A DNA stretch of 63,846 nt, the filler included, from Collodictyon triciliatum (lineage: Eukaryota): NCBI GenBank assembly GCA_043381765.1. It is 30 parts of 30 records of this genome, joined end to end, with 100 filler letters (N's around TTAATTAATTAA, not from the genome) between each part and the next. Parts side by side here need not be neighbours in the genome. Positions count along the whole stretch, not along the records: positions 49,329 to 51,366 come from JBHJMP010009664.1; 29 more parts are not named here. The stretch is one strand, 5' to 3'. The notes under the pieces are model-generated. The model was not told the origin of the DNA, searched no databases, and worked only from the letters and a program-made list of their open reading frames with translations. A program made the translations under genes and the position numbers. Below are positions 2,051-62,159 of this stretch, one piece after another. Each line of letters begins with the position of its first letter. The stretch's first letter is position 1.

Positions 2051-2150
2051 NNNNNNNNNNNNNNNNNNNNNNNNNNNNNNNNNNNNNNNNNNNNTTAATT
2101 AATTAANNNNNNNNNNNNNNNNNNNNNNNNNNNNNNNNNNNNNNNNNNNN
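2051..2150. other. Artificial contig spacer N44-TTAATTAATTAA-N44 (first of 29, recurring about every 2.14-2.15 kb up to 62060-62159)
   Basis: Identical 100-nt spacer carrying stops in all six frames, repeated at near-constant intervals. Confidence 0.99.
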
Positions 2151-4144: not shown

Positions 4145-5669
4145 AGGAAAAAGGCCCCCTTTTGATTTTTTTGTTTTTGGGTTTGGTTATATCCTTTTTT
4201 NNNNNNNNNNNNNNNNNNNNNNNNNNNNNNNNNNNNNNNNNNNNTTAATTAATTAANNNNNNNNNNNNNNNNNNNNNNNNNNNNNNNNNNNNNNNNNNNN
4301 TTTTCTCTTTTTCTCTTTTTCTCTTTTTCTCTTTTTTTCTTTTTTTCTTTTTTTTCTTTTTTTTTCTTTTTTTTCTTTTTTTTTCTTTCTTCTTTTTCCT
4401 TGTCCAAGGAGGCGAGCTTCACAGAATTTTTTTTGATTCCCTGTCGACAAGTACAAATTCATGTTTATTTTTTCATACCTTGAACTTAAATTTATATAGG
4501 CAAATATATCCGGCTCGATTGGGTATGTACCTCGTGCGTATATCCCAATCACAGATATTCCTGATGCAGATGCCTCAACAGACGTCATTGCAATACGCGA
4601 TTACACAGCTCAAAACTCGGGTCAGAAATGTTTTTATTTATGCGGATTATTTCCTCTGCTTTAGTCGATTTAACAGAGGAGGTTTATGTATGATGTGGTT
4701 GTTTTATTCTTTTCCTTCTTATTTGATTAAGATGAGATATTTGTATGTGTGTTGTTTTTCTTACTATTCAAATAGTTCATAATAAACTTTACTGCATATG
4801 CATTTATTGCTTTGAAGAAAAGAAAAAAGAGAATAGGCTTGTAACCTCCTGAGATAAATACTTTTATGTATGTGTATAATCCATGCTATTATGTTGATTG
4901 TTTCATATACATATTACTCAGACGAGCTAAGTTTCCCAAAGTTTGCTGTCATCACACTACTGGATAAGAGTGGGAAAACACATTGGAAAGGGCGCTATGA
5001 TGGAAAAGTTTTTTCTTTGTTTTCATATACTGCGAAAAAAAAATCGAATTTTGCTCAATGTTCTACCTTTTTTTCATATTATCCTTCTTTTTTTTAAAAA
5101 AAAAAAATGAAAGAGATGAAATCTATTAACACGTCCCTTCTTAAACCAGGTAGGCTTCTTCCCACGCCACCTCGTCGAGCCACTCCTAGGCCAGAGGCTC
5201 CAAGATAAGTAATATATTTATATGTACACATATGGGAAATGGATGGATCTAATTTGTTTTCGAACTGGGCATCGAGTCAAAGTCAAGTGAATGTCACAGC
5301 TACATGATTGATTTCAGAACTCAATAGACCCCTTTACAACAAGCATTTGTATGTTCATTTATTTCTTTTCCATCTATTTTAATTAATTTTTATTTATTTA
5401 GTGCCCTTGCCAACTTTTTCAAAGATAGAAAAGTGTTTAACAGGGAAGAGGTAATCGAGTTTGAGTATGCTGCAGTGAAGAATTTTTTCATGGAAAGGGC
5501 AGGTTGGTACATGAATTGATGCAGTTGCTATCACACATACCTTTATAATATTCTCTGGCCTCTTCATATCCATTTTATTCTGAAGGCGTATCATTCATCC
5601 AATTTTATTTTTCTACTTTGATATATCAAGGAATTTTATTTTTCAAATAGTATTATCCTAAATTACTAG

Positions 5670-6205
5670 GCTATACGAAAAATTTATACAGTTATTATTC
5701 TACTGTTAATGTTGTTGGTTATGCTGATGTCGATACCATGAGCAACGCACAATTTATATCGTTTGCCAAAGAATGCAAGCTTATTACGCCTCAATTAAGA
5801 CCCGGTGAGATGGAACTATCAATTAAACTTGAGACACATTCATATTGATCCCCGGCTCTTTTGCTTTTGCTTTTGCTTTTGCTTTTTCTTGTTTGAATTA
5901 ATAAGAATGCGCTAATATATGAATGGATATTTCATCTTTAGATAAAAGTGTCCGAACACGTTCCTTCCTTAATTATTTATACCTTGTTTCGATGCATTCA
6001 GCCTTATTTTCATTTATTCAAATGCAGCTGACCTGGATATCATCTTCGTGGCCTCTCACGCAAAGGTTTTGGATCCAGACGAGGTTTAAATTTCATCGAT
6101 GAACTGTTAAGATTTAAAATATATGCATATGACAAATTTTGAATTTGCCAACCCACCAGAAAAAAGAATCTGAGAAAACCATGTCCATACAAGAGTTTCT
6201 AGCAG
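5670..6205 (+). CDS. Exons of an EF-hand-like/p25-alpha-like protein (partial)
   Basis: GT-AG spliced peptide YTKNLYSYYSTV...DTMSNAQFISFAKECKLITPQLRPADLDIIFVAS...KTMSIQEFLA, a pattern typical of EF-hand-like flagellar/TPPP-related proteins. Confidence 0.5.
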
Positions 6206-6449
6206 GTATCACACAGTTTTGTAATGATGCTTATATTACTTTTTGTTTTTGTTTTTATTTTTTGTTTTTATTTTTTGTTTTTATTTTTTGTTTTTATTTT
6301 TTGTTTTTATTTTTTGTTTTTATTTTTTGTTTTTATTTTTTGTTTTTATNNNNNNNNNNNNNNNNNNNNNNNNNNNNNNNNNNNNNNNNNNNNTTAATTA
6401 ATTAANNNNNNNNNNNNNNNNNNNNNNNNNNNNNNNNNNNNNNNNNNNN

Positions 6450-12793: not shown

Positions 12794-12893
12794 NNNNNNN
12801 NNNNNNNNNNNNNNNNNNNNNNNNNNNNNNNNNNNNNTTAATTAATTAANNNNNNNNNNNNNNNNNNNNNNNNNNNNNNNNNNNNNNNNNNNN

Positions 12894-14939
12894 GCTGTTT
12901 CATCAGCTGCTGCTTCGTTGCCTGCTGTCTCGTTGAGTGCTGCTTCATTAGCTGCTGCTTCATTGGCTGCTGCTTCGATGACTGTTGTCTCGTTGACTGC
13001 TGTCTCATTACCTGTTGTTTCGTTGACTGCTGCTTCGTTGACTGCTGCTTCATTGGCTGCTGCTTCATTGGCTGCTGTCTCGTTGACTGTTGTCTCGTTG
13101 ACTGTTGTCTCATCGGCTGTTGTTTCGTTGGCCATTGTTTCATCAGCTGCTGCTTCATCGCCTGCTGCTTCATAGGCTGTTGTCTCGTTGACTGTTGTCT
13201 CATCGGCTGTTGTTTCGTTGGCCATTGTTTCATCAGCTGCTGCTTCATCGCCTGCTGCTTCATGGGCTGTTGTTTCGTTGACTGTTGTCTCATCGGCTGT
13301 TGCTTCATCAGCTGTTGCTTCATCGGCTGCTGTTTCATCGGCTGCTGTCTCGTTGCCTGCTGTTTCATTGATGGCTGTTTCATTGACTGTTGTCTCGTTG
13401 CCTGCTGTCTCGTTGCCTGCTGTCTCGTTGCCTGCTGTCTCATTACCTGTTGTTTCGTTGACTGTTGTCTCATCGGCTGCTGCTTCATCGACTATTGCTT
13501 CATTGACGGCTGCTTCATTGGCTGTTACTTCATCGGCTGCTGTTTCATCGGCTGCTGTTTCATTGACGGTTGCTTCGTTGGTTGCTGTCTCGTTGCCTGC
13601 TGTCTCGTTGCCTGCTGTCTCGTTGGCTGCTGCTTCATCGGCTGTTGCTTCATTGACTGTTGTTTCATCAACTGCTGTTTCATCAGCTGCTATCTCGTTG
13701 CCTGCTGCTTCATCGGCTGTTGTTTCATCGGCTGCTGTCTCGTTGCCTGCTGCTTCGTTGCCTGTTGTTTCATCGGCTGCTGTTTCATCGGCTGTTGCTT
13801 CATTGACTGTTGTTTCATCAACTGCTGCTTCATCGACTGTTGTTTCATCGGCTGTTGCTTCATTGACTGTTGTTTCATCAACTGCTGCTTCATCGGCTGT
13901 TGTTTCATCGGCTGCTGTTTCATTGACGGTTGCTTCGTCGACTGCTGTCTCGTTGCCTGCTGCTTCATCGGCTGTTGTTTCATCAGCTGCTGTCTCGTTG
14001 CCTGCTGTCTCGTTGCCTGCTGTCTCGTTGACTGCTGCTTCGTTGCCTGCTGCTTCATCGGCTGTTGTTTCATCGGCTGCTGTCTCGTTGCCTGCTGCTT
14101 CATCGGCTGTTGCTTCATCGGCTGCTGTTTCATCGGCTGTTGCTTCATTGACTGTTGCTTCATTGACTGTTGTTTCATCAACTGCTGCTTCATCGGCTGT
14201 TGTTTCATCGGCTGCTGTCTCGTTGACTGCTGCTTCGTTGCCTGCTGCTTCGTTGCGTGCTGCTTCATTGACTGTTTCTTCATTGACTGTTGTTTCATCA
14301 GCTGCTGTTTCATCGGCTGTTGCTTCATTGACTGTTGTTTCATCAGCTGCTGTCTCGTTGACTGTTGCTTCATCGGCTGTTGTTTCATCAACTGCTGCTT
14401 CATCGGCTGTTGCTTCATCGGCTGTTGTTTCATCAGCTGCTGTCTCGTTGCCTACTGTCTCATTACCTGCTGTTTCATCAGCTGTTGTCTCATTGGCTGC
14501 TGCTTCGTTGCCTGCTGTCTCGTTGACTGCTGCTTCATCGGCTGTTGTTTCATCGGCTGCTGTCTCGTTGACTGCTGCTTCGTTGCCTGTTGCTTCGTTG
14601 CCTGCTGCTTCGTTGCCTGCTGCTTCGTTGCCTGCTGCTTCGTTGCCTGCTGCTTCGTTGCCTGCTGCTTCATTGACTGTTGCTTCATTGACTGTTGCTT
14701 CATTGACTGTTGCTTCATTGACTGCTGCTTCATTGACTGCTGCTTCATCGGCTGTTGTCTCATTACCTGTTGTTTCTTTGACTGCTGCTTCATTGACTGT
14801 TGTTTCATCGGCTGTTGTTTCATCGGCTGCTGTCTCGTTGACTGCTGCTTCGTTGCCTGCTGCTTCGTTGCCTGCTGCTTCATCGGCTGTTGTTTCATCG
14901 CCTGCTGTTTCATCGGCTGTTGCTTCATTGACTGTTGTT
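12894..14939 (-). CDS. Pentapeptide-repeat acidic glycoprotein segment, (A/T)(A/T)(A/V/G)(N/D)E, from a 15-bp tandem repeat filling the contig
   Basis: The minus frame reading NETAANEAAADET appears open across the contig. Glu is near-invariant with GAA/GAG synonymous variation. The alternative plus SSAAV frame has TAG at 13173-13175. Confidence 0.6.
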
Positions 14940-15040
14940 NNNNNNNNNNNNNNNNNNNNNNNNNNNNNNNNNNNNNNNNNNNNTTAATTAATTAANNNNN
15001 NNNNNNNNNNNNNNNNNNNNNNNNNNNNNNNNNNNNNNNG

Positions 15041-17085
15041 TCCACGTCTGCTTCTATCACTGTTCCTGGGTCGATATCCGCCTCCTCCTCAAACACTGAA
15101 CTGAATGATGACGTGTCTGGCTCTAGTGCTTCGAGTCGCATGGAGTCAGTTGTGACTGCTCCTCACTCAGAATTACAGGATACTCAATCCATCTCGAATG
15201 TTGCCTCTCTCACTACATCCAGCCCACACTCTGCCTCATTTTCAGTGACCGAATCATCCAGTGAATCGGAGAGCTCATCGCCAACTGCGACATTCTTTCC
15301 ATCAGAATCCGCAACTAGCTCCCTCCTCGACCAAGCCTCGCCCTCGGATGCCCGTCCCTCGAAAGAGGTGACTACAACCGCTAAAAGGTCTCCTGCTTCA
15401 CCTTCTCAGCCTCCTTCGTCATCGAGTGCAGTGCATCCATCGACATCAGAATCTAATTCTAGACTCATGTCTCAAGTTATCACCAACCAGCACACATCCA
15501 GTGGTGGTGTTTCTGTTACAAAACCCAACAGTCCATCTGAAACAAACCTGATTTCACCATCCCCCTTGCATTCTTCGTCGAGATTGACCTCACAATCGCA
15601 TTCTGAATCCATGTCTGAGTCTGCCACTATCTCATCTCAAGCTTCAGACTCTGTAACGCCTCTGGGTGCCACTTATGAGTCTACCTATGTTTCGGTCTCA
15701 GCTGCCACACATATCATCGCATCTACTAGTTCTCACTCAAGAGATGCAACCGTCGCAGCCTCTAGTAGCAAATCAAACTCTTATTCTTACCATTCTGACA
15801 TGCCCTCAGCTTTGCCTTCAGATATACCTACGGATGTGCCCTCAGCTTTGCCATCAAATTTAAATTCTGATCTATCATCTGGTATACCCTCGGATCTGAT
15901 ATCTGATTCTGCCTACTCTACAGCCTCAAAATCAGCGATAACAGCTAATTCAGATTTCAAGTCAACGTATAGTGACACCCGATCGGTGATATCCACTGGA
16001 AACACAGAGACAAAATCTTTTGCTCATCTTACTGAGACGGCTGTGGCATCTGATTCCGTTTCTCCTCTAGACTCCGGTATCTCTCAATCTGCATCCAGCT
16101 CTGAGTCCGAAACCGTAATGAAGCCAACCACTACACTTACACCTCACAATAGCTCAAAAACAAAGGTATCTCACTCGGCTTCAGAGGAAAATCAATATGT
16201 ATCTGCCACTCACATGCAAACCCAAACCCATTTGCGTACGTCTCAAGCTCAGGCTCACACCCAGTCCCAGCCTCAAAATCTTCCTCAGACCCAGACTGGA
16301 GCTGCAAGCCATAGCTCGGCTCATTCCCTTTTGAATCCTACTACCAGTCATTCAGGGTCTGTTTCTATGATTCATTCGCAGTCCTCCTCGAATGATGTGA
16401 ATATGGCCACTGATTCCGTAAGTATGAGTCAAATCCAGTCGTCAGACACTGAACCCCCTTCCTACACTGGAACTACCGGTAACGAGAAGTCAAACTCGAA
16501 GTCCCCTGGTGGAGTGAACTCTGTTTCTGAACCTCCATCACACTCTAAAACCATGTCTCACTCCGAATCCATGTCGGAGTCAAAGTATCAGACTTTGGAT
16601 CGACCGGAAACTGAGCCCAATTCTAATGCTGAAACGCAAACGCAAACTATAGACAGTAATCCTGCATCAAATTCGGCTGGTCGTACTACATCTTCAACTG
16701 TTAAAAATCTCACACCATCTACCTCCTCAACAGGTACAACAGCAAAAATAGCGACCCAGTCTTATATAACTCACCAATTTGATACAGCTACACCAGCCAG
16801 TAATGACTCTAAAACATATTCCTTGGCCCCTTCGGAACTTAATACTTCTAAACAGAATGAGACGAAAACGCAATCTCAAGTGAACAATCAATCACAGAGT
16901 AGCCACCAATCAGACTTTGAATCTCAGTTGCCAACAGGATCGTTGGTCATTGGAGAGTCCCCGTCTATGTCTCGGAGCCTTCCGCTGGACTGCCCTCCCG
17001 GTACGTACCCCAATGAGTGTCGGCAGTGTGGCCCAAAGAAACCTGCAGTTCCCATTGAATTTTCTGTCATCCCCAGTGACGCTGG
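15041..17085 (+). CDS. Ser/Thr-rich mucin-like extracellular protein segment with a Cys-rich module at its end (partial at both ends)
   Basis: Frame open across the whole contig (~680 aa), strongly S/T/P/H biased, ending CPPGTYPNECRQCGPK. Confidence 0.75.
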
Positions 17086-17185
17086 NNNNNNNNNNNNNNN
17101 NNNNNNNNNNNNNNNNNNNNNNNNNNNNNTTAATTAATTAANNNNNNNNNNNNNNNNNNNNNNNNNNNNNNNNNNNNNNNNNNNN

Positions 17186-21336: not shown

Positions 21337-21368
<32 letters not shown>

Positions 21369-21475
21369 GGGGGGGNNNNNNNNNNNNNNNNNNNNNNNNN
21401 NNNNNNNNNNNNNNNNNNNTTAATTAATTAANNNNNNNNNNNNNNNNNNNNNNNNNNNNNNNNNNNNNNNNNNNN

Positions 21476-27910: not shown

Positions 27911-29409
27911 TCAGTCTCAGTCTCAGTCTCAGTCTCAGTCTCAGTCTCAGTCTCAGTCTCAGTCTCAGTCTCAGTCTCAGTCTCAGTCTCAGTCTCAGTC
28001 TCAGTCTCAGTCTCAGTCTCAGTCTCAGTCTCAATCTCAGTCTCAATCTCAGTCTCAATCTCAGTCTCAGTCTCAGTCTCAGTCTCAGTCTCAGTCTCAG
28101 TCTCAATCTCAGTCTCAATCTCAATCTCAGTCTCAGTCTCAATCATCGTCTCCAAGAATCATATCAGCCGATTGGTTTAGTAATAAGAAATCAGAAAGAT
28201 TTGGATACAAAGTTGCCGTTATGGGTATCATTGCTGCAATATCTGCCCCTTTTTGTGTTACACCAGAGTTACCGAATACTTGTGATGGAGGACATATTTT
28301 GACCTACAAAAAAGACGATTCTAGTGGAGAATGGAACAATCACAAGAAAATCAGGAACCCTTATTTCAATCGTGACAATATGTTTGGTCATAATATGATT
28401 CTAAATCCGCACTATCTCATCATATCTACGCCCAGATCGAATTACGCCGGGACTGACATCGGTATTGTGGTATTTTTCAAGTGGAACGAAGATGGAGACA
28501 CCTTCTTGAAGGATTCAAACATCCGGTATAGGAAGAGGACAAAAAATTTTGACTTGGGAAGCTCTATCTCAAACATCGACGCCATCACTGCCATCGGAAT
28601 GCCTACTCACGATTTTTCGTCTCAAGTGTCCAACTCTGGATGCACACATATTTACAGAAAGAAGGAGAATCGCAGGTGGGGTATGAGGATTACCATCACA
28701 TCACCAAGCCCAAGCCCGAATGACCGTTTTGGGCATTCCGTATCGCTCGGAAGCTCGACTAGTCTGGCAGTCTCCAATAATCCAGAATACAGCTCTGACC
28801 AAGCTGTATACGTCTACGAATACGAAGGAAATCAGTGGAATCTTTTGCAAACCCTATCGGACTATAACAGACCCGGTTTTGGGTGGGCTGTGGGGTTCTG
28901 TGGGAATGCGCTCTATGTCTCCGCAGTGAACGATAACTCGAACGCAGGGTCAGTCTTAGAGTTCCTTGTTGGTCCAAATGGTGAATATAATTCTGCGTCT
29001 GTAATAGAGCCGGATAGCGGGGCGAGTGGAAAACAATTTGGGTTTAGCTTCGCCTTCTCCAGTGATGGTTCAAGACTTGTTGCGGGTGCGAAGCCATGTC
29101 CTGACATGGAGGCATGCGACATCAAAGGTGTCAAATAAGAATGAATGAATGAAATTAGAGAAGGAAGCAATGTTTTGTATTATACATAGACTCTGATTAT
29201 TAACTTCTTGTTTGACTCTAGGCTCTGTGCATGTTTTCACGAGAGATTCATCATCTTGGGGTGAATTCTATTTCGTCGAATCGTCTGTTGTGGATGGATC
29301 TGATGCTTTTGGGTTTGATGTCGCTGTTGATGGAAGCACAGTTTTAGTTTCTGCTCCGTTTGATTCAACAACTGACCAAATTGGAAAAACTTACTTTATC
29401 ACAAAATAA
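27911..29409 (+). CDS. FG-GAP/integrin-alpha-like beta-propeller protein preceded by an in-frame poly(Ser-Gln) linker; one intron at ~29129-29221
   Basis: Repeated FGxxVA...GAP-like blades (FGYKVAV, FGHSVSL, FGWAVG, FGFSFAFS, FGFDVAVDG..VSAP). (TCTCAG)n reads SQSQ in the same frame. Stop at 29409. Confidence 0.8.
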
Positions 29410-30785
29410 ACACTTTTCCATCGCCCTCGCCTGATGCCCTCTCGCCTCACCTACCAGTCACCGAATCATGCACACGCAGTTGAAAAATTATAATAAAAAA
29501 AAAAGAAAAAAGCCCCAAAAGAAAAAGTCGAGACCCTTGCTCCTGCTCTTTCTACTTCAAGCCCAGGCTGCAAACAGGAATATATATTAAAAAAAATAAT
29601 CTGACTGAAACCATTCCTAAGGAGCATGTGTAGAACCAAACCCATCAGACATCATAAATGAACAGATTTTAAGGGACTTAGTCATTCATCAGATTATCAT
29701 TTATGCCAAGACACAGCAGGTCATCTTTCCCGCCATTTATCAATCTTAAGTGTGCGACCAGCCCAAAACATCTTGTTATTTTTATTTTTGTTTTTATTTT
29801 TATTTTTGTTTTATTTTTATTTTTGTTTTATTTTTATTTTTATTTTTATTTTTATTTTTATTTTTGTTTTATTTTTGTTTTATTTTTGTTTTATTTTTGT
29901 TTTATTTTTGTTTTATTTTTGTTTTATTTTTGTTTTATTTTTGTTTTATTTTTGNNNNNNNNNNNNNNNNNNNNNNNNNNNNNNNNNNNNNNNNNNNNTT
30001 AATTAATTAANNNNNNNNNNNNNNNNNNNNNNNNNNNNNNNNNNNNNNNNNNNNAAAAAAAAAAAAAAAAAAAAAAAATCTGGACATTACTGACGGATGG
30101 GATGAAAATAGAGTCCGACAGATTTATTCCTATGTTTTTGGAATAAATAAGGAACGACTGTTTTTTTTTCTTTCTCATTTCTTCACTTAATTTTATTGAA
30201 GCCCCAATAAATCAACCCTTCCGCACCCAGAAAACCTGCACCTCTAAACCCTAGTGCAGCCGTTGCTCCCGACTGCGCTGTCGATTTCGTAAAACAAGAA
30301 GGGAAGAAAATAAAAGCCCTGCGTGCAGAACAAACACCAAAATAATCCTTTCTTTATATAACCATCCAAGAAGCAGCCCATAAATGCCCAAATGCACAGG
30401 CTCCAAGTCAGACGAAAGTGACAACAAGAAAGCAACAAAAACCAACAAAACCAATAAAAACAACTAAACTCGAAGGCCGCGATCACAACCCTTCTCTGCC
30501 ATGATCAGTGATCGGACACCCGCCCCACACAACACCACAACCCAACCTCTTGATCCACCCCACTACCACCACCACGCGTCATGACGCACACACGCCTCAT
30601 CGCCACGACCCCCAACTCACCCAAACACCAAACCAAACCAAACCAAACCAAAGCACACACCACCTCCCCAACTGCCCTACATAGATATATATATATATAA
30701 TCCTTTTTGTTATCACTCCTGCCGAAGCCCAAAAGCAAACATAACACAAACACATACACATACACATACACACATAAAACGGGAA

Positions 30786-31937
30786 ATGAAGAAGCGCACC
30801 GCATCCGCCTGGGCCATGGACTCGCTGCCGGAGGCGCCGACGTACCACCCGACGCGGGAGGAGTTTGCGGACCCGCTGGGGTACATCGAGCGGCTGGGGC
30901 GGCGGGACAGCGCAGCATTTGCGGCGGGGCTGTGCAAGATCGTGCCGCCGGCGGGGGTGTTTGAGCCGCGCTTTGTGCGGGACTGGGACGCGTTTGCCTT
31001 CCGCCCGCGGCGGCAGATGCTGAGCGAGCTGAGCGCGCAGGGCCGCACGCGGTCGCAGTACCTGGACGGGCTGCAGACGTTCTGGACGCTGCGCGGCGTG
31101 GACCTGGATGCGCGTGCGCGGCCCCCGGTCGTGGATCGCCGCCCCCTGGACCTGTACCTGCTGCGCAACGCCGTCCGCGACATGGGCGGCCCCGACGCCG
31201 TCACGCGCCACAAGCACTGGGCCACCATCGGCCGCAGGCTGCGCCTCGACTCCCGCACCTGCACCTCCATCTCCTCCACCCTGCGCCTCCACTACGACCG
31301 CTGGGTGGCCCCCTACGAGGCCTTCGTCGCCGCCATCGCTCCCGCTTCGGCTTCGGCTTCGGCTTCGGCTTCGGCGTCGGCTTCGGCTTCGGCACGCCCT
31401 GGCATCAATATGCACGCCCTCCCTGACTCGCCCCCGAAGCGCCCGCGGCTGGCCGAGGCTCCTGATGAGAACCACAACGACGACGACGTCGACGACGAGG
31501 TCCCGTTCCACCTCTTGTTGCTATATATGTTTTTGGTTTTTGGTTTTTGGATTTTGGATTTTGGATTTTGGATTTTGGATTTTGGATTTTGGATTTTGGA
31601 TTTTGGATTTTGGATTTTGGATTTTGGATTTTGGATTTTGGATTTTGGTTGGTCTATCTATTTGCTGTTATGGTGTGTCTAAATGCTATCATGGTGTGTC
31701 TGCTGTCATGGTGTGTCTAAATGCTGTCATGGTGTGTCCTCATCTGCATGTATGGCTGTGTGGCTGTTACAGGAGTCCGGCTGCATCTGTGGGCCGTGTG
31801 GGGCATCGTTAGATGGCGACGTTGTGGCGTGTGTGCAGTGCCGCGGCAGATGGCACGTGGCGTGTGCTGACCCGCCTGTGCTGGAGCCGCATGTGCAGAC
31901 TCTTCCCTTGTGGCATTGTGCTCGGTGTATTGCCTTG
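30786..31937 (+). CDS. KDM5/Lid-like histone demethylase N-terminus (JmjN, ARID, PHD), partial
   Basis: JmjN (EAPTYHPTREEFADPLGYI...GLCKIVPP), ARID (LDLYLLRNAVRDMGG...WATIGRRL...LRLHYDRW), intron ~31500-31772, then a PHD finger (CGPC...CVQC...HVAC...WHCARC). Confidence 0.88.
31545..31647. repeat. (TTTTGGA)n intronic heptamer array
   Basis: Directly visible inside the KDM5-like intron. Confidence 0.95.
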
Positions 31938-33039: not shown

Positions 33040-34241
33040 GTCCTCTCTTTCGCAAACCGTAGCAATATGCGCAAGCAACTGCGTGCTGTAATGGAAGCCC
33101 GAAAGTGTGACGAAGAGGACATGAAAATTATAGCGGGCAACCCCGCCCTCAGCCTCAGGCTCGATTTCCCAAGAAAAAAATGATGCACTTGTAACATTTG
33201 GCGAACAAGAGGAAATTGGGAAGCGAGATACTTGCGAGACTTTGAACAGATGGAGAAATGGTTCTTTGGACTAGGAAAGGAAAAAGAAAAGACCTTGTAT
33301 CCGTTCTGTACACCATCTGCAGACATGCAGCATTTATTACCTCGCAACAACAAAAAGAACACCCACGACTTCTTCTCAAAGATGTGGTCAAGGCGAGACT
33401 ATGATGCTGCTACTCTCGAGCTTATTACCACAAACTGCTCCAAGGCTTCACCCTCGCAAGCAGCCAGCATGATAGCACCTATACATGCAGGCGAATTGTG
33501 GAAAGCGGTCAAGTCGCTACACAACTGAAAGGCGCCAGCCCAGATAGGCTGCACAACGGAATATACTCTGCTTTCTATAATGAGGTCAAGGCATCCTTAG
33601 TGACTTTTCTGAATGGAATCATGTCTGGTGGCGACCTACCGCAAGGATTTACAGAGGCCATGGTGCGGCTGATACCAAAGAAAGGAAACTCGAGCAATCT
33701 TGCAGACTGGCGACCAATATTGCTGTTGAATAATGACTACAAGATATTTACGACGCTACTCAGAAATCGCATATCACCCATCGCTGACAAACTCATATCC
33801 AAAGAGCAGATTGGTTTCATGAACGGAAGGAACATCGACACAAACATCTGGGTCGTCAACAAAGAATACATGGAATATCAAGTAAGCGGGACACCCCGCG
33901 CCATGATTTTCTACAACCTGGAGAAAGCATATGACTATGTGAACCACGAAGCACTGGAAACCATCCTATACAAAAGAGGCTTCTGTACCGGATTCACCAG
34001 TCTTATCAAGAAACTGCACGAAAACGCAACAGCGAGGGTACTCCCGGCACATGGACACGGATGCAATTCAAAGACAGAGCGGTGTGTATCAAGGCAGCCC
34101 ACTTGCACCACTGCTCTTCAACTTTGTTGCTGACTGCCTTGCAAACCACTTCCGAAACGAAAACAAGGTATGCAACCAACTGCTACTTCAATATGCAGAC
34201 GACACAGCATTCATCTTGCGGTCTCCCGAAGGCGTCACACT
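33040..34241 (+). mobile_element. Degraded L1/Tx1-clade non-LTR retrotransposon ORF2 reverse transcriptase
   Basis: LIPKKG...WRPILLLNNDYKI, QIGFMNGRNI, NLEKAYDYVNH, GVYQGSPLAPLLF and QYADDT motifs. Stop at ~33526-33528 and a frameshift near 34045. Confidence 0.93.
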
Positions 34242-40558: not shown

Positions 40559-42357
40559 TGAGTAAGTTTTTAAACAAAATGGAAGGGTAAAAAAAAAAAA
40601 GCGTGTGAGTGAGTGAGTGAGTGAGGGAGGGAGGGAGGGAGGGAGGGAGGGAGGGAGGGGGGGGGGGNNNNNNNNNNNNNNNNNNNNNNNNNNNNNNNNN
40701 NNNNNNNNNNNTTAATTAATTAANNNNNNNNNNNNNNNNNNNNNNNNNNNNNNNNNNNNNNNNNNNNATTTACCAACCCTCTCAATCGCAATAGAGCATC
40801 TTCGAGAACCAGTTTAGGCACAGAAAGTGCTGCAGGTATTCCTCGAGAGTGGTAGGATGCCCGAACCACGGAAGAGATCTTTGCTGTCGAGAGTGCAGTT
40901 CTTCGGCTTCGGAGGATTGCGAACCCAACGGAAACCAGAGAATGGATGAAGTCTTGGACAAAAATACCAAATTCGAAAAAACCAAGTGACAGATTCTATC
41001 CACATTTGCATAAAGGATTTTATATGAAGATTATATAAAAATGGAAATGAATTCAAAAGGAATTATACGAATGTGGGATATATATCATACCAACTTTCTA
41101 ACCGCTTGGATACAGTATTAATTTCATACAGATGATGCAATGAATGTACTTACACAATTTACACCGATTCTATAATAATATTCAGTATAAACAGACTAAA
41201 CTTAAGGGCTGCAGTGGATATGTGGCAGACGAATTATTTCGCCTGCGTCGACCTTTCCTTTTTCGGCAATTCGTTTCTTTGTTACTGTGATAATGCAAAC
41301 TCTAAAGGAAATCATATACTGGAAAGCCCTCAACACACACACACAGCAAAGAAAAAAACCCAATAAACAAACCCTTAAAACCCACTCACGCACACAGAAT
41401 CTGCAGCCACACCCACCTTCCGGTCCGACGGCTCTGTGCTATCCTCTGCCTCTGCTTCGCTTGTCTGCCCCGCCTCAGAATGCGCTGTTGTTGTGCGACT
41501 TAACACGTCCTTCCCAATCGGTAGGTGCAGTGACCTTTTCCTTTTCCTTTTTCCTTTTCCTTGTCGTTTAATTCAATATTCTTTTTATTTTTCTTTTTAA
41601 TTCAATTTTCCTTTTATTATTTGTTCGTCGTCTCATAACTAATATTTTTGTAGTCCGTTTGCCCTTCTAATCAGTTTAATTACGCTTCTGCATTGATATC
41701 TGAATTACATGAAATTATTCATATTATGCTTTCCTTTCTGCATGTCGATTAATCTCGGCAATAAAATACAATTTTTAGAGGGTTCATTTGTTGTTGTGAT
41801 TAATACCGAATCGCTCATACGCATGCAATCCTAGCCTGTCACTTTACTAACTGCGCATCAACGCCCAGCCGGCACTTATGCTTCAATTTGGCTCCACATT
41901 TTTTTTGGATTCGGGAATCGATAATCCCGTTGGGAAATATCAAAAACACATAAATCAGTATATATGATGAATTATCCACGATTTATGATTAAGTATCTAA
42001 TTCAAACGTTTATTAATAGAAGTTTTCTTCTTTTTTTGGATTATGATTAGTTGTTTCAAATGTGTACTATTTCAAAGGACGTAATGCTGCTTTGGGATAT
42101 ACTCTGAACCCCATACACACGTTTGTTATGCTTAATTATGTTATGTTATCTTATGGGCATTTTCCTATTTTCTTTTGTTAATTTTGAGTTTTTTTTTCAT
42201 AGAAAACACAGTATCATCCAACAATTTGATTTCTTTTCTATCATTATTATTGTTTTTGTTTTTATTGTTTACAAAGTTGATACACAATTGCATCCCATTT
42301 CACGGGTTGTGGTGATGCATCCTTCATAACATTCGACCCAACCGGAACCTTTGTCAG

Positions 42358-49228: not shown

Positions 49229-49453
49229 NNNNNNNNNNNNNNNNNNNNNNNNNNNNNNNNNNNNNNNNNNNNTTAATTAATTAANNNNNNNNNNNNNNNN
49301 NNNNNNNNNNNNNNNNNNNNNNNNNNNNAGCAAGCCAGGCTGTATATTTTTTATTTTTACTTTGCGATATCTTGACAACGTAAGTCTGGCCCTTGACCTT
49401 GATTTCTTTTTTAAATTCGCTCATACCCTTTCTGGAAAATATTTTATTGTCGT

Positions 49454-49650
49454 GCCAAATGCGGAATTTATAATAATTAAAATTACAAATGCGGATGGAA
49501 TATTCTAGAATATTATATTACCAAATGCGGAATTTAAAATAATAAATTTTCCAAATGTGGAATTTATAATAATTAAAATCCAAATATGGTTATAGAATCT
49601 TCTAGAACCTTCCTTTTCTGGATATAGAACCTTCTAGAACCTTCCTTTCC
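49454..49650. repeat. ~31-bp tandem repeats (CCAAATGCGGAATTTATAATAATTAAAAT-like, about 4 copies) plus duplicated TAGAAYCTTCTAGAACCTTCC upstream of the capsid gene
   Basis: Units start at ~49455, 49486, 49521 and 49551. The second motif occurs at ~49593 and ~49625. Confidence 0.85.
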
Positions 49651-49700
49651 AAATCTGGAATTCCACATTAGGAAGGTAAAGGGGTATATAAAGGATGAAC

Positions 49701-49744
49701 TCTTGTACCCAAATTATATATACCTAGATAATTTGGGTACAAGA
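49701..49744. repeat. Perfect 17-bp inverted repeat (hairpin, 10-nt loop)
   Basis: tcttgtacccaaattat (49701-49717) and ataatttgggtacaaga (49728-49744). Confidence 0.97.
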
Positions 49745-49767
49745 AAAGATACAGCTACCTTGAGTCT

Positions 49768-51060
49768 ATGTTTATGAATTACTTGGCAAAAGATTACAAT
49801 GAATGTGTTGGTCAAGCTGTGTTGGGTATAGGTCCTTTTTTCACAAGAGTGCAACGAGTAGATGCAACTGCAGGAGCTGCAACCACTACTACACGAAAGT
49901 TTTGTGTTCCTTTTAGATTGTCTGGTATTTCAAACTACTCGGGTCTAATATCAACTTCACTAATTGATACCGTTTCGGCTTTTCAGATTGAGATTGAACT
50001 GGCGCCTGCTACCGACGCGTGTCAAATTAATAATGTAACTGGAGGGGCTCCTCTTACTAATGCTACATATCAACTCAGTACGTCCTACCTAACATATGAT
50101 GTTGTTCGTATGGCTCCAGAATATCATCAACAATTACAGTCAAGTATTCAACGAGGCATTCCCCTGCAAATTCCTTACAAGACATGGAGAACGTCTATGT
50201 ACAGCTTACCAAACGGCCAACAAACGCTGCATGTTTTCAATATCTACGATACAGTTAAATCACTGAATGCTGTGTACATCGCGTTTTTTAAGCAGCGAGA
50301 GCAAAGTACATTTTTGGTTCCTGGCAAAGATAGAAAGCACAAGCCCCCAACACTTGTTGATGCCCAACTTCAACTCGGCTCATTCTACTACCCCTTGCGG
50401 CCAATGGACTGTGAAGGAAATGCACCCCAAGCATTCCTGGAGCTGCAAAAGGCGCTGGGTCTAACTCACGTTCGAAGTGAATACACCGGGCCGTTTGGTT
50501 TTGATGGCCGAAATTTTGTTGGAAATTATTTAAATAGTAGACAGAATTTGCAGACTGCAGAATTTTCCACCACAATACCTCAACAAGCTGGTGGTGCTGC
50601 TGGTGTTGCACAATCTGTAAATAATACATTTACACCTATAGTCAATGATAATGGTCAAACTGTTAATGGACCATCATTAACTCTAACTCGAGGTGCGAAT
50701 CCTGGTAATGCAAGAGTCGCGTACACTACTACTGTTCGTGCAAATCCAAATCATAGCGCTTTTGAATACACTGCTGACGTTGGCGTTTCTATAGTCCCCA
50801 GAAATTATTATGGAGGCGTTTGCCAGGGCCCATGCACTGAATTTATGATTGGCTTCAATCTCCGCAAAGTCCTCGATGCAGTTGAAGGGGAGATCGTGGG
50901 AACAGACATCCAGTCATCCGGCAGCGGCTTGATGTCATTGCGATTAAATTTCAATGCTCCTATTGGTGATACTGACGGGCCATACAATATTATTGTTGCA
51001 TCGCTGTACGACGCCGTCCTTGAAATTCAATCCAACCAACAGACTTTCCGCGTAGAATAA
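49768..51060 (+). CDS. Polinton-like virus/virophage-type double jelly-roll major capsid protein, probably N-terminally truncated
   Basis: Intronless 430-aa ORF with PLV-MCP-like motifs: FCVPFRLSG...FQIEIELAP, YQLSTSYLTYDVV, IPYKTW, VKSLNAVY, QLQLGSFYYP...QAFLELQKALG, FMIGFNL, LYDAVLEI. Confidence 0.8.
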   Translation: MFMNYLAKDYNECVGQAVLGIGPFFTRVQRVDATAGAATTTTRKFCVPFRLSGISNYSGLISTSLIDTVSAFQIEIELAPATDACQINNVTGGAPLTNATYQLSTSYLTYDVVRMAPEYHQQLQSSIQRGIPLQIPYKTWRTSMYSLPNGQQTLHVFNIYDTVKSLNAVYIAFFKQREQSTFLVPGKDRKHKPPTLVDAQLQLGSFYYPLRPMDCEGNAPQAFLELQKALGLTHVRSEYTGPFGFDGRNFVGNYLNSRQNLQTAEFSTTIPQQAGGAAGVAQSVNNTFTPIVNDNGQTVNGPSLTLTRGANPGNARVAYTTTVRANPNHSAFEYTADVGVSIVPRNYYGGVCQGPCTEFMIGFNLRKVLDAVEGEIVGTDIQSSGSGLMSLRLNFNAPIGDTDGPYNIIVASLYDAVLEIQSNQQTFRVE

Positions 51061-51076
51061 AATATTTATATAAGTA

Positions 51077-51232
51077 ATGGAACCGATTACAATAATCTCA
51101 TTACTTATGACTTGTGTGCTCGTGATAGAGCAAGTCTGGAAATATACCGTCGACCATCTCAAGCGCAGTTCGTGTTATGGTGGCACTGTCGAATTTAAAA
51201 GTGAAAAGGATTTGTTACATAACGCGTCTTGA
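51077..51232 (+). CDS. Small 51-aa hydrophobic viral-type protein downstream of the capsid gene
   Basis: MEPITIISLLMTCVLVIEQVWKYTVDHLKRSSCYGGTVEFKSEKDLLHNAS*, starting 16 nt after the MCP stop. Below the ORF-track size cutoff. Confidence 0.6.
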   Translation: MEPITIISLLMTCVLVIEQVWKYTVDHLKRSSCYGGTVEFKSEKDLLHNAS

Positions 51233-51324
51233 AATTTTAAAATGGGCCGCCCGCCCCCAGCACCAAACCGCATGAAATCATTTTCCGGCTAAGGTCAATC
51301 GCTGGTTAATTGGGCTTTTTACCT

Positions 51325-51355
<31 letters not shown>

Positions 51356-51826
51356 AATTTTTTTTTNNNNNNNNNNNNNNNNNNNNNNNNNNNNNNNNNN
51401 NNNNNNNNNNTTAATTAATTAANNNNNNNNNNNNNNNNNNNNNNNNNNNNNNNNNNNNNNNNNNNNTTCTTTTTTTTCTTTTTTTCTTTTTTTTTTTAAA
51501 GTGAGCTAATATGTCCGCGGCCCCACATAACCTGACATATTCTTTTGACTGCAAAGGACTTTCACTCTCAAGCAGCAAGCGAAGGACTCAACTTTCACCA
51601 TGGTCTGTTCTGTTTTCTTTTCTTTTTTTTTTATTTGGTTCATTCTCTGTCCTGCATTTTCTGTTCGTTATTCTATTATTATGTCGCGAAAGCACACACA
51701 ACTAGTTTTATTTGCCAACTCGCCGCTTTTTGGGTACTTAAGGGACATTCAGCTTTACTCGTCTTGTTCCGATCCAAACAACTGAGCTGCTGGTGAATAA
51801 CGATGTTTATATTTCACAACGCATAG

Positions 51827-61613: not shown

Positions 61614-62159
61614 CAAGCGCCACAGTGTTCGACGCTCATTTATAGTTTTTTTTTTGTTGGGGAACATGTATCTCTCCTTGCCATCCAAACATGCACTTTC
61701 TTTTAATATCATTTATCCTCAATATTTCCACTTGCGAAGCACAAATAATCCAGGCATCTAAAAAATGATCCTTTTTCTCTTTTTTTTTTTTTAACAATAG
61801 AATGCCGCAAAGCTAAGCAATTAAACAGAAAGTAAAAGAAAACAACCAAATACTATTCTGCATTCTTTTTTCTGTGCTCATGTTGTGCTCAAGATGAAAA
61901 AAATGAAAACAAACGGCCCATATTATAATGTTTGGGTAGTGGATTACTTCTGAAGAAGTAGAAATAGGTTCTTCCTTTCATCAAGTGCTTTACTATCATT
62001 TGTAATCAAAACAAAACCAAACAAAAACAAAAACACAGAAACTGTGAGTTCTTGGCTTCNNNNNNNNNNNNNNNNNNNNNNNNNNNNNNNNNNNNNNNNN
62101 NNNTTAATTAATTAANNNNNNNNNNNNNNNNNNNNNNNNNNNNNNNNNNNNNNNNNNNN

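Follow-up and report, generated by a model that had tools for sequence, protein, structure and literature searches.

Double jelly-roll major capsid proteins, of the vertical type found in Bamfordvirae, are composed of two consecutive eight-stranded barrels per chain. Polinton-like viruses (PLVs) have genomes of roughly 14-40 kb, in which the Tlr6f gene is frequent, not universal. Both free and endogenous PLVs of protists are already well described (PMC7805220, PMC10120064, PMC12220804). Their core comprises the capsid, the penton and the packaging ATPase, and their capsids are distantly homologous to that of PBCV-1, according to PMC7805220. The Pfam family PF19058 (DUF5754) corresponds to Tlr6f and is conserved across PLVs and other DNA viruses, as stated in PMC12220804. 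For virophages, PMC9952930 requires a virophage-type capsid, an ATPase and a cysteine protease before an assignment is made.

Here, we describe a 2038-bp contig from the Collodictyon triciliatum assembly GCA_043381765.1, which is probably a fragment of a small element of the PLV type, belonging to a eukaryote. It lies in a window of 63,846 nucleotides, by which we mean the whole stretch of DNA that was analysed. The window is a size-sorted chain of leftover contigs and no chromosome segment. Its 30 unlinked contigs descend in size from 2050 to 2037 bp, the last one being clipped at the window end, and they are joined by 29 identical 100-bp linkers, each made of 44 N, TTAATTAATTAA and another 44 N. 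The capsid ORF has its own contig, at 49329-51366, and physical linkage is limited to that piece (Table 1). Other contigs of the window look eukaryotic, with a JmjN+ARID exon, a reverse transcriptase and FG-GAP repeats, and none of these 29 carries genes of the capsid-bearing element. Because the window is a chain of unlinked contigs, the neighbouring pieces are no guide to the genomic context of the ORF, and the earlier placement of the ORF "in an intron-rich genome" is not borne out. Among public sequencing runs, none contained half of the words of this contig.

Table 1. Features of the capsid-bearing contig and its boundaries, in window positions. X1 to X3 are freshwater metagenome runs (X1 and X2 from one study, X3 from another), X20 is a further run, L003 is the locus of a relative, P0002 is a full-length relative, and A3 and A5 are alignments.
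Feature	Position	Strand	Basis
Artificial linker, left contig boundary	49229..49328		Same linker 29 times in the window
First 32 codons of a Tlr6f/DUF5754-family gene, running off the left end of the contig	49329..49424	-	Start ATG at 49422-49424; match to L003, alignment A3
AT-rich spacer	49425..49743		Collinear with the right end of L003 (matches 6147-6228) and with the 1308-nt X20 record
Breakpoint, displaced segment to the left, capsid from about residue 107 to the right	49743..49744		tblastn starts; divergence of X20 and of X1-X3
5'-truncated double jelly-roll major capsid gene	49744..51060	+	Equals residues 107-552 of P0002; ORF from the internal Met at 49768
Hypervariable Gly/Asn/Thr/Ala-rich stretch, second jelly roll	50551..50817	+	Composition and per-block identity; ORF residues 262-350
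AATAAA overlapping the capsid stop codon	51056..51061	+	Read from sequence
Conserved 51-codon gene	51077..51232	+	tblastn in 6 loci; alignment A5, 7 sequences
Downstream stretch	51233..51311		X1 and X2 contigs carry the same sequence (bin 51233-51300 with depth)
Homopolymer tail, C run, then A and T runs	51312..51366		Read from sequence
Artificial linker, right contig boundary	51367..51466		One of the 29 identical linkers

The initial annotation described a beta-strand-rich ORF of 430 aa with seven capsid motifs, a Gly/Asn/Thr-rich insertion in its second half and a small ORF 16 nt downstream, and in these respects it was borne out. The ORF, at 49768..51060 on the + strand, is ATG-started. All seven motifs, from IEIELAP to YDAVL.I, are found in its translation, where they sit on invariant or near-invariant columns of the 38-sequence family alignment, and the structural model of the full-length relative P0002 is rich in beta-strands. 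Gly, Asn and Thr make up 36% of residues 262-350, compared with 20.8% of the remainder. This part coincides with the hypervariable, least conserved stretch of the family: per-block identity to the family is 13-21% in residues 271-360, versus 47-83% elsewhere. The stretch has no counterpart in the profile of the distant relatives and is probably a surface-exposed elaboration. Where the other 37 family members show no variation at all (66 columns), the window copy agrees with them in 65, and it keeps 93 of the 97 columns conserved at 90% or more (a fraction of 0.959, for a range of 0.97-1.0 in close relatives and 0.879-1.0 in the family). The retained capsid part is thus hardly degraded, and these counts, like a Tyr in the small ORF described below, hint at relaxed constraint only faintly. 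As a side observation on the end of the gene, record 20 of X20 stops at 51082 and then continues with 18 A, which gives a weak hint only, the RNA label of X20 being a guess.

In a large protein collection, 41 of 6313 candidates were relatives of the ORF at E ≤ 1e-3. The best of them, P0002 (552 aa, 74% identity), matched with an E-value of 2.1e-200, and therefore the relationship is far beyond chance. All 41 are unnamed or annotated as 'hypothetical protein', and they originate from metagenomes and run assemblies. An exhaustive search of representatives gave 43 matches, four of them below 1e-30. The family alignment of 38 sequences includes the window ORF and the 37 relatives of 507-597 aa, with the partial matches P0007, P0012, P0028 and P0036 left out. 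Homologous over their full length are 38 further, distant relatives (profile-profile probability 100%, E 1.1e-77), one of which has a sub-threshold match to Capsid_N (E 0.0088), the distant set being otherwise outside Pfam. Sequence searches of Pfam, PHROGs and PDB with the capsid ORF gave nothing meaningful, profile searches of PDB with the family alignments A1 and A6 gave nothing, and the capsid family itself contains none of the Pfam NCLDV capsid domains. In IMG/VR, none of 98 candidate stretches encodes a relative, by both single-protein and family-profile scans. Phage records, searched by tblastn, and a prokaryote genome set were likewise devoid of relatives, which, together with the Pfam result, supports a viral over a cellular origin, as first proposed. 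The longest contigs carrying P0002, P0008, P0091 and P0016 measure 17215, 17173, 17175 and 16905 bp, and further longest contigs with family members reach 14837 and 14300 bp. The 41-member family may already bear a group name among the listed PLV groups.

To represent the family, P0002 was modelled by AF2 on the 38-sequence alignment (pLDDT 78.2, pTM 0.79). Foldseek against PDB returned 239 matches at E ≤ 1e-3 for this model, and the best 24 of these are all double jelly-roll capsid, coat or scaffold proteins, the top matches including iridovirus (3.0e-14), Sputnik (1.4e-12), PBCV-1, faustovirus, poxvirus D13 and mavirus. Among the viral predicted structures in BFVD there were 155 matches at E ≤ 1e-3, and the best 50 of these are mostly capsids of giant viruses, virophages and adintoviruses. 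In the VIA comparison, 50 of 50 rows are double jelly-roll entries with Z-scores of 23.3-12.4, and the aligned span runs from about residue 14 to 552. The capsids of faustovirus (Z 23.3, rmsd 3.2, 356 residues aligned), PBCV-1 (23.2) and African swine fever virus (ASFV p72, 22.0) scored highest, ahead of iridovirus and D13 (about 20), Sputnik (17.9), PRD1-type phages (about 16), mavirus (16.0) and the adenovirus hexon (13). The highest scores belong to giant-virus capsids and not to any solved capsid of a small virus, which counts against a PLV. PBCV-1-type capsids thus outrank virophage capsids, in a comparison that may be lopsided, as the PDB rows were returned without any PLV capsid structure. 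On the predicted structure, the capsid family is one of double jelly-roll major capsid proteins. The agreement between the best 24 of 239 Foldseek matches and the 50 VIA rows upholds the double jelly-roll assignment of the initial annotation; a different fold, or best matches to cellular proteins, would have spoken against it, and the fold search brought up neither.

The small ORF downstream of the capsid gene (51 codons, 51077-51232) is conserved in all six loci that were aligned, with identities of 90, 86, 81, 58, 54 and 37-38% in L001, L003, L005, L004, L007 and L009, respectively. Its product has an N-terminal hydrophobic helix followed by a basic, Cys-rich tail, and in the window a Tyr replaces the second Cys of a CC pair seen in six relatives. 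These features suggest a membrane-type protein, which may sit in an internal membrane. The sequence that follows, up to 51311, is also present in metagenome contigs from X1 and X2, and therefore it is element sequence and not host. The homopolymer tail that closes the contig is likely a read or assembly artefact. Several other contigs of the window end likewise in homopolymers.

At the opposite end, the contig carries the start of a Tlr6f/DUF5754-family gene. Positions 49335-49425 are 79% identical at the nucleotide level to L003 5982-6072 (E 2.7e-17), and the encoded N-terminus is 79-81% identical to the product of L003 5745-6113 on the minus strand (79% over 33 aa, E 1.2e-13). Nine homologues of the Tlr6f-like protein were found. 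When six relatives were scanned with PF19058 (cut-off 27.4 bits), two scored above it (P0104 with 34.3 and P0105 with 34.8 bits), and P0101 was just below (25.1 bits). In the related loci L003, L008 and L009, the order is capsid gene, small ORF and then the Tlr6f gene, which is convergent to them, whereas in the window it comes before the truncated capsid gene and is divergent from it. Because the Tlr6f gene stands downstream of the capsid gene in the relatives, we judge the upstream 415 bp to come from an element of this same kind and to be out of place here. The spacer between the Tlr6f start and the capsid sequence contains direct repeats at 49445-49664 (repeat families D1-D3), a TATA-like box, TATATAAA, at 49685-49692, which faces right and is common to L003, and a palindrome at 49701-49744 with 20-nt arms (inverted pair I2), which ends at 49744. 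The spacer is promoter-like.

The initial annotation had taken the frame to be uninterrupted and intact, and had seen in this a sign of recent activity. Neither statement holds: about 106 N-terminal codons are missing, as 37 of the 41 relatives have 507-597 aa, and the 5'-truncated gene is fused to the displaced segment. In P0002, the counterpart of the window ORF is residues 115-552. In tblastn with three full-length queries, homology opens at 49744 (residue 106-107) in three of three cases, and the same searches found no trace of capsid residues 1-106 anywhere in the window. Considering that homology starts at 49744, with an in-frame TAG just upstream, the ATG at 49768 is an internal Met. 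The missing part corresponds to six strands that the model predicts within the first jelly roll (residues 21-27, 43-49, 54-73, 76-82, 90-97 and 101-106), and the window copy does not encode a complete two-barrel chain. With these six strands absent, this copy cannot make a normal capsomer. An intron ending at the AG of 49742-49743 was considered and rejected, since the relatives are continuous there and the intron would contain the start and promoter of another gene. The truncation is recent or artefactual.

Except for the homopolymer tail, the contig matches element sequence from elsewhere, end to end. No virus-host junction is present on its 2038 bp, which is absence of evidence and not evidence against integration. 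As for terminal inverted repeats, the only candidate is a pair of 17 nt and 88% identity at 49403/51190, judged to be at chance level. The contig could thus stem from free virus particles, or from the element of another microbe, that were sequenced together with the protist, and we give this origin somewhat less than an even chance. It would explain that no host sequence is found on a contig with artificial neighbours, and that the genes of the element are missing from the other window contigs. Freshwater metagenome runs from two studies contain pieces that are at least 99% alike (11 of 55 in X1, 8 of 43 in X2 and 2 of 13 in X3), as would be expected for a free virus, but cells of the same host species would explain them equally well. 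Deletion and rearrangement are what one expects of integrated copies in decay more than of a replicating virus population, though defective virus genomes occur as well. Furthermore, PMC10120064 reports that lone capsid contigs in protist assemblies usually proved to belong to insertions.

The breakpoint itself can be followed in other data sets. Contigs from X1, X2 and X3 continue, to the left of 49756/49765, into normal capsid sequence, read as FLLEDIQRYS. Record 17 of X20 (1308 nt, from a named organism, coded A) covers 49330-49742 and then departs from the window. Because both flanks continue differently elsewhere, the joint links segments that are not adjacent in relatives. Little or no cover was seen for 50553-50620 in all four runs, and for 50621-50824 in X2, X3 and X20. 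Among the metagenome and X20 pieces listed (90 others are outside this listing), none crosses the joint or covers the whole of this thinly covered part.

The balance tips slightly towards the joint being a real rearrangement, by deletion or recombination, and this is favoured over a k-mer mis-join because the break is clean: the X20 match stops exactly at 49742 and capsid homology begins at 49744, as in a real deletion or recombination. To judge by the visible loose ends, compared by eye, the overlap of the two parental sequences at the joint amounts to a few bases, whereas a k-mer assembler would require a much longer one. More tentatively, the genes could be full-length in the organism or virus, and several related copies could have been run together at the joint, either during assembly or in a chimeric library molecule. 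Such an origin would agree with the nearly undamaged state of the coding remainder, with its 65 of 66 invariant columns, and with the lack of listed pieces crossing the joint. It would also agree with the nature of the contig, one of many leftovers of about 2 kb that end in simple repeats or homopolymers. PMC10120064 reports that short-read assemblies of multi-copy endogenous elements yield lone capsid contigs and false consensus sequences.

With regard to the kind of virus, a PLV origin, as suggested by the initial annotation, remains the best fit, given the structure nearer to PBCV-1, the family contigs of about 17 kb and the Tlr6f/DUF5754 gene on the same contig. The resemblance to PLV-type capsids is structural and indirect (VIA Z-scores of 23.2 for PBCV-1, compared with 17.9 for Sputnik and 16.0 for mavirus). 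Like PLVs, the window family has a double jelly-roll capsid with a distant likeness to PBCV-1, a Tlr6f/DUF5754 gene adjoining the capsid module, and probably a small genome class, the contigs of the relatives, which may be incomplete, reaching 17.2 kb. The near-identical pieces in freshwater metagenomes are another shared trait, and so is the occurrence as a short orphan contig in a draft eukaryote assembly, which applies to 17% of the capsid matches in protist assemblies according to PMC10120064. Unlike in described PLVs, the capsid family is without a Pfam model and without a relative among the 98 IMG/VR candidate stretches, and the window copy is 5'-truncated and rearranged. A further difference is that neither a packaging ATPase nor a penton was identified in the loci of the relatives, which cover at most 6.3 kb of elements that may measure about 17 kb. 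The ten neighbour proteins of L003, L007 and L009 gave no Pfam match above the cut-off, the only match to the Walker-A pattern in the relatives' loci is a 119-aa protein of L002, and an Atlas search with a 467-aa neighbour protein gave no usable match. A candidate penton at L007 284-1081 (265 aa) has only two homologues, a model too poor to be of use (pLDDT 41.7), and no Pfam match. The Atlas clusters nearest to this candidate are viral, a lead only.

A virophage (Maveriviricetes) capsid gene is improbable. Virophages are also small protist viruses with a double jelly-roll capsid of similar size, and Sputnik (3j26) and mavirus (6g44) are clear structural matches by their VIA scores. Moreover, the capsids of Qinghai Lake virophage, Sissi and mavirus are among the BFVD matches listed, and contigs of about 17 kb fit the virophage range of 15-45 kb given in PMC9952930. 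However, both virophage structures score below giant-virus-type capsids, by 2-7 Z units, and neither the cysteine protease nor the ATPase of the virophage core was seen in the relatives' loci, which extend only up to 6.3 kb.

Similarly improbable is that the fragment stems from a giant virus (Nucleocytoviricota), or from a small virus related to the giant ones. The faustovirus, PBCV-1 and ASFV capsids do have the top VIA scores, and the whole-chain fold is shared with Nucleocytoviricota capsids, including PBCV-1 Vp54 (8h2i, 5j7u, 6ku9, 8hif), at Z 20-23 and rmsd 3.0-4.2 over 331-362 aligned residues. In favour of this origin, one in 38 distant relatives has a sub-threshold Capsid_N match, and DUF5754 is described from giant viruses too. 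Yet the identity is only 8-10%, with no match at the sequence level or in Pfam, and the NCLDV capsid domains of Pfam are absent from the family. Giant-virus genomes are also far larger than the contigs that bear the family, the longest of which, for four of its proteins, all stop near 17 kb, and the short contigs of the relatives have a compact neighbourhood in common.

For a PLV-type element, the contig would read from left to right as the minus-strand start of a Tlr6f/DUF5754 gene, a repeat-rich spacer with a TATA-like box, a fused and truncated capsid gene, and a gene for a small membrane protein. In the intact virus, if its fold and the general knowledge of capsids of this type are a guide, a capsid protein of about 540 aa would form trimeric, pseudo-hexagonal capsomers and build an icosahedral shell. 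The outer face of this shell would bear the variable Gly/Asn/Thr-rich stretch, and the small hydrophobic protein may sit in an internal membrane. As the strands of the first jelly roll are missing, the copy described here would be a deleted, rearranged (defective) element, or else a mis-joined assembly of several copies. In animals, capsid-derived restriction genes act against viruses, and it is by analogy conceivable, if very improbable, that the truncated capsid is a retained and expressed host gene, a dominant-negative antiviral that poisons the capsomer assembly of incoming relatives, in which case the deletion would have set capsid codon 107 about 50 nt behind the TATA-like promoter of another gene, and the first ATG past the expected transcript start would be that of the ORF, at 49768.

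Overall, this viral fragment is ordinary and its kind is known; it is truncated and rearranged, and in the assembly it stands as an orphan. Its value is modest, in that the eukaryote assemblies with Polinton-like virus sequence are increased by one. Two cautions for the scanning of genomes follow from it: the genomic context is false in windows of concatenated leftover contigs, and a truncated gene can be masked where a long ORF opens at an internal Met. Of wider use is the capsid family itself, with its 41 close and about 38 distant members, no Pfam model, and a conserved core of three genes, for the capsid, the small membrane protein and Tlr6f. With the source organism in hand, these three genes could be of help in assigning a host to PLVs from freshwater metagenomes.

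The window (1-63846) is a chain of 30 leftover contigs, ordered by length and separated by 100-bp spacers with a six-frame stop word inside. Inferences from gene neighbourhood that cross any spacer are unsafe throughout the window. At the ends of several contigs, long homopolymers of G or C adjoin runs of A/T, for example at 21348-21375, 40637-40667 and 51312-51366; this has the look of an artefact of the sequencing chemistry that passed into the assembly. On other contigs, an exon of a KDM5-like histone demethylase, a reverse transcriptase and a protein with FG-GAP repeats are ordinary eukaryotic content. Two adjacent contigs (12842-14995 and 14996-17137; GC 0.47-0.50) contain stop-free stretches of about 680-715 codons, and in one of the two this holds for several frames on both strands. 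These open stretches had no Pfam match and are probably low-complexity repeat sequence, not genes.

In four relatives with related capsid genes, a conserved protein of 114-119 aa is encoded directly upstream of the capsid gene. Farther upstream lies a divergent gene whose length varies (436-1015 aa in complete ORFs) and whose product has a conserved C-terminus. Neither product was assigned to a Pfam family. One of these relatives, L007, also carries three consecutive ORFs, and the first two, with C-terminal ends that are alike, may be paralogues resembling the penton, the minor capsid protein. The nearest Atlas protein clusters of the second product (265 aa) are viral, but the structure predicted for it was too poor to use (pLDDT 41.7). 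Downstream of the capsid gene in the window lies a small membrane-protein gene. In three more distant relatives its weak matches oppose the capsid gene in strand, which suggests, from sequence matches, that the gene is inverted in that branch.

Coordinates of features in the window and in the loci of relatives
Feature	Location	Positions	Strand	E
JmjN+ARID exon	window	30585-31679	+	
Retroelement reverse transcriptase	window	33405-34130	+	
FG-GAP repeat protein	window	27912-29135	+	
Spacers	window	2051-2150, 4201-4300, ..., 62060-62159		
114-119-aa upstream protein	L002	365-724		
114-119-aa upstream protein	L004	620-979		
114-119-aa upstream protein	L006	1157-1501		
114-119-aa upstream protein	L007	3677-4021		
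Three consecutive ORFs	L007	1-267; 284-1081; 1131-2210		
Small membrane-protein gene match	L008	1424-1531	opposite to capsid gene	0.006
Small membrane-protein gene match	L010	525-638	opposite to capsid gene	1.8e-8
Small membrane-protein gene match	L011	261-353	opposite to capsid gene	0.001

A possible end of a relative's capsid transcript lies in X20, a public sequencing run from organism A. A short record of this run spans window positions 51015-51082, with 8 differences in 68 letters (~88% identity), and then terminates in 18 A. The tail begins about 20 nt past an AATAAA (51056-51061) that overlaps the capsid stop codon. The label of X20 as RNA is a guess; should it be right, the record would represent a polyadenylated transcript of the capsid gene from a relative with ~88% identity.
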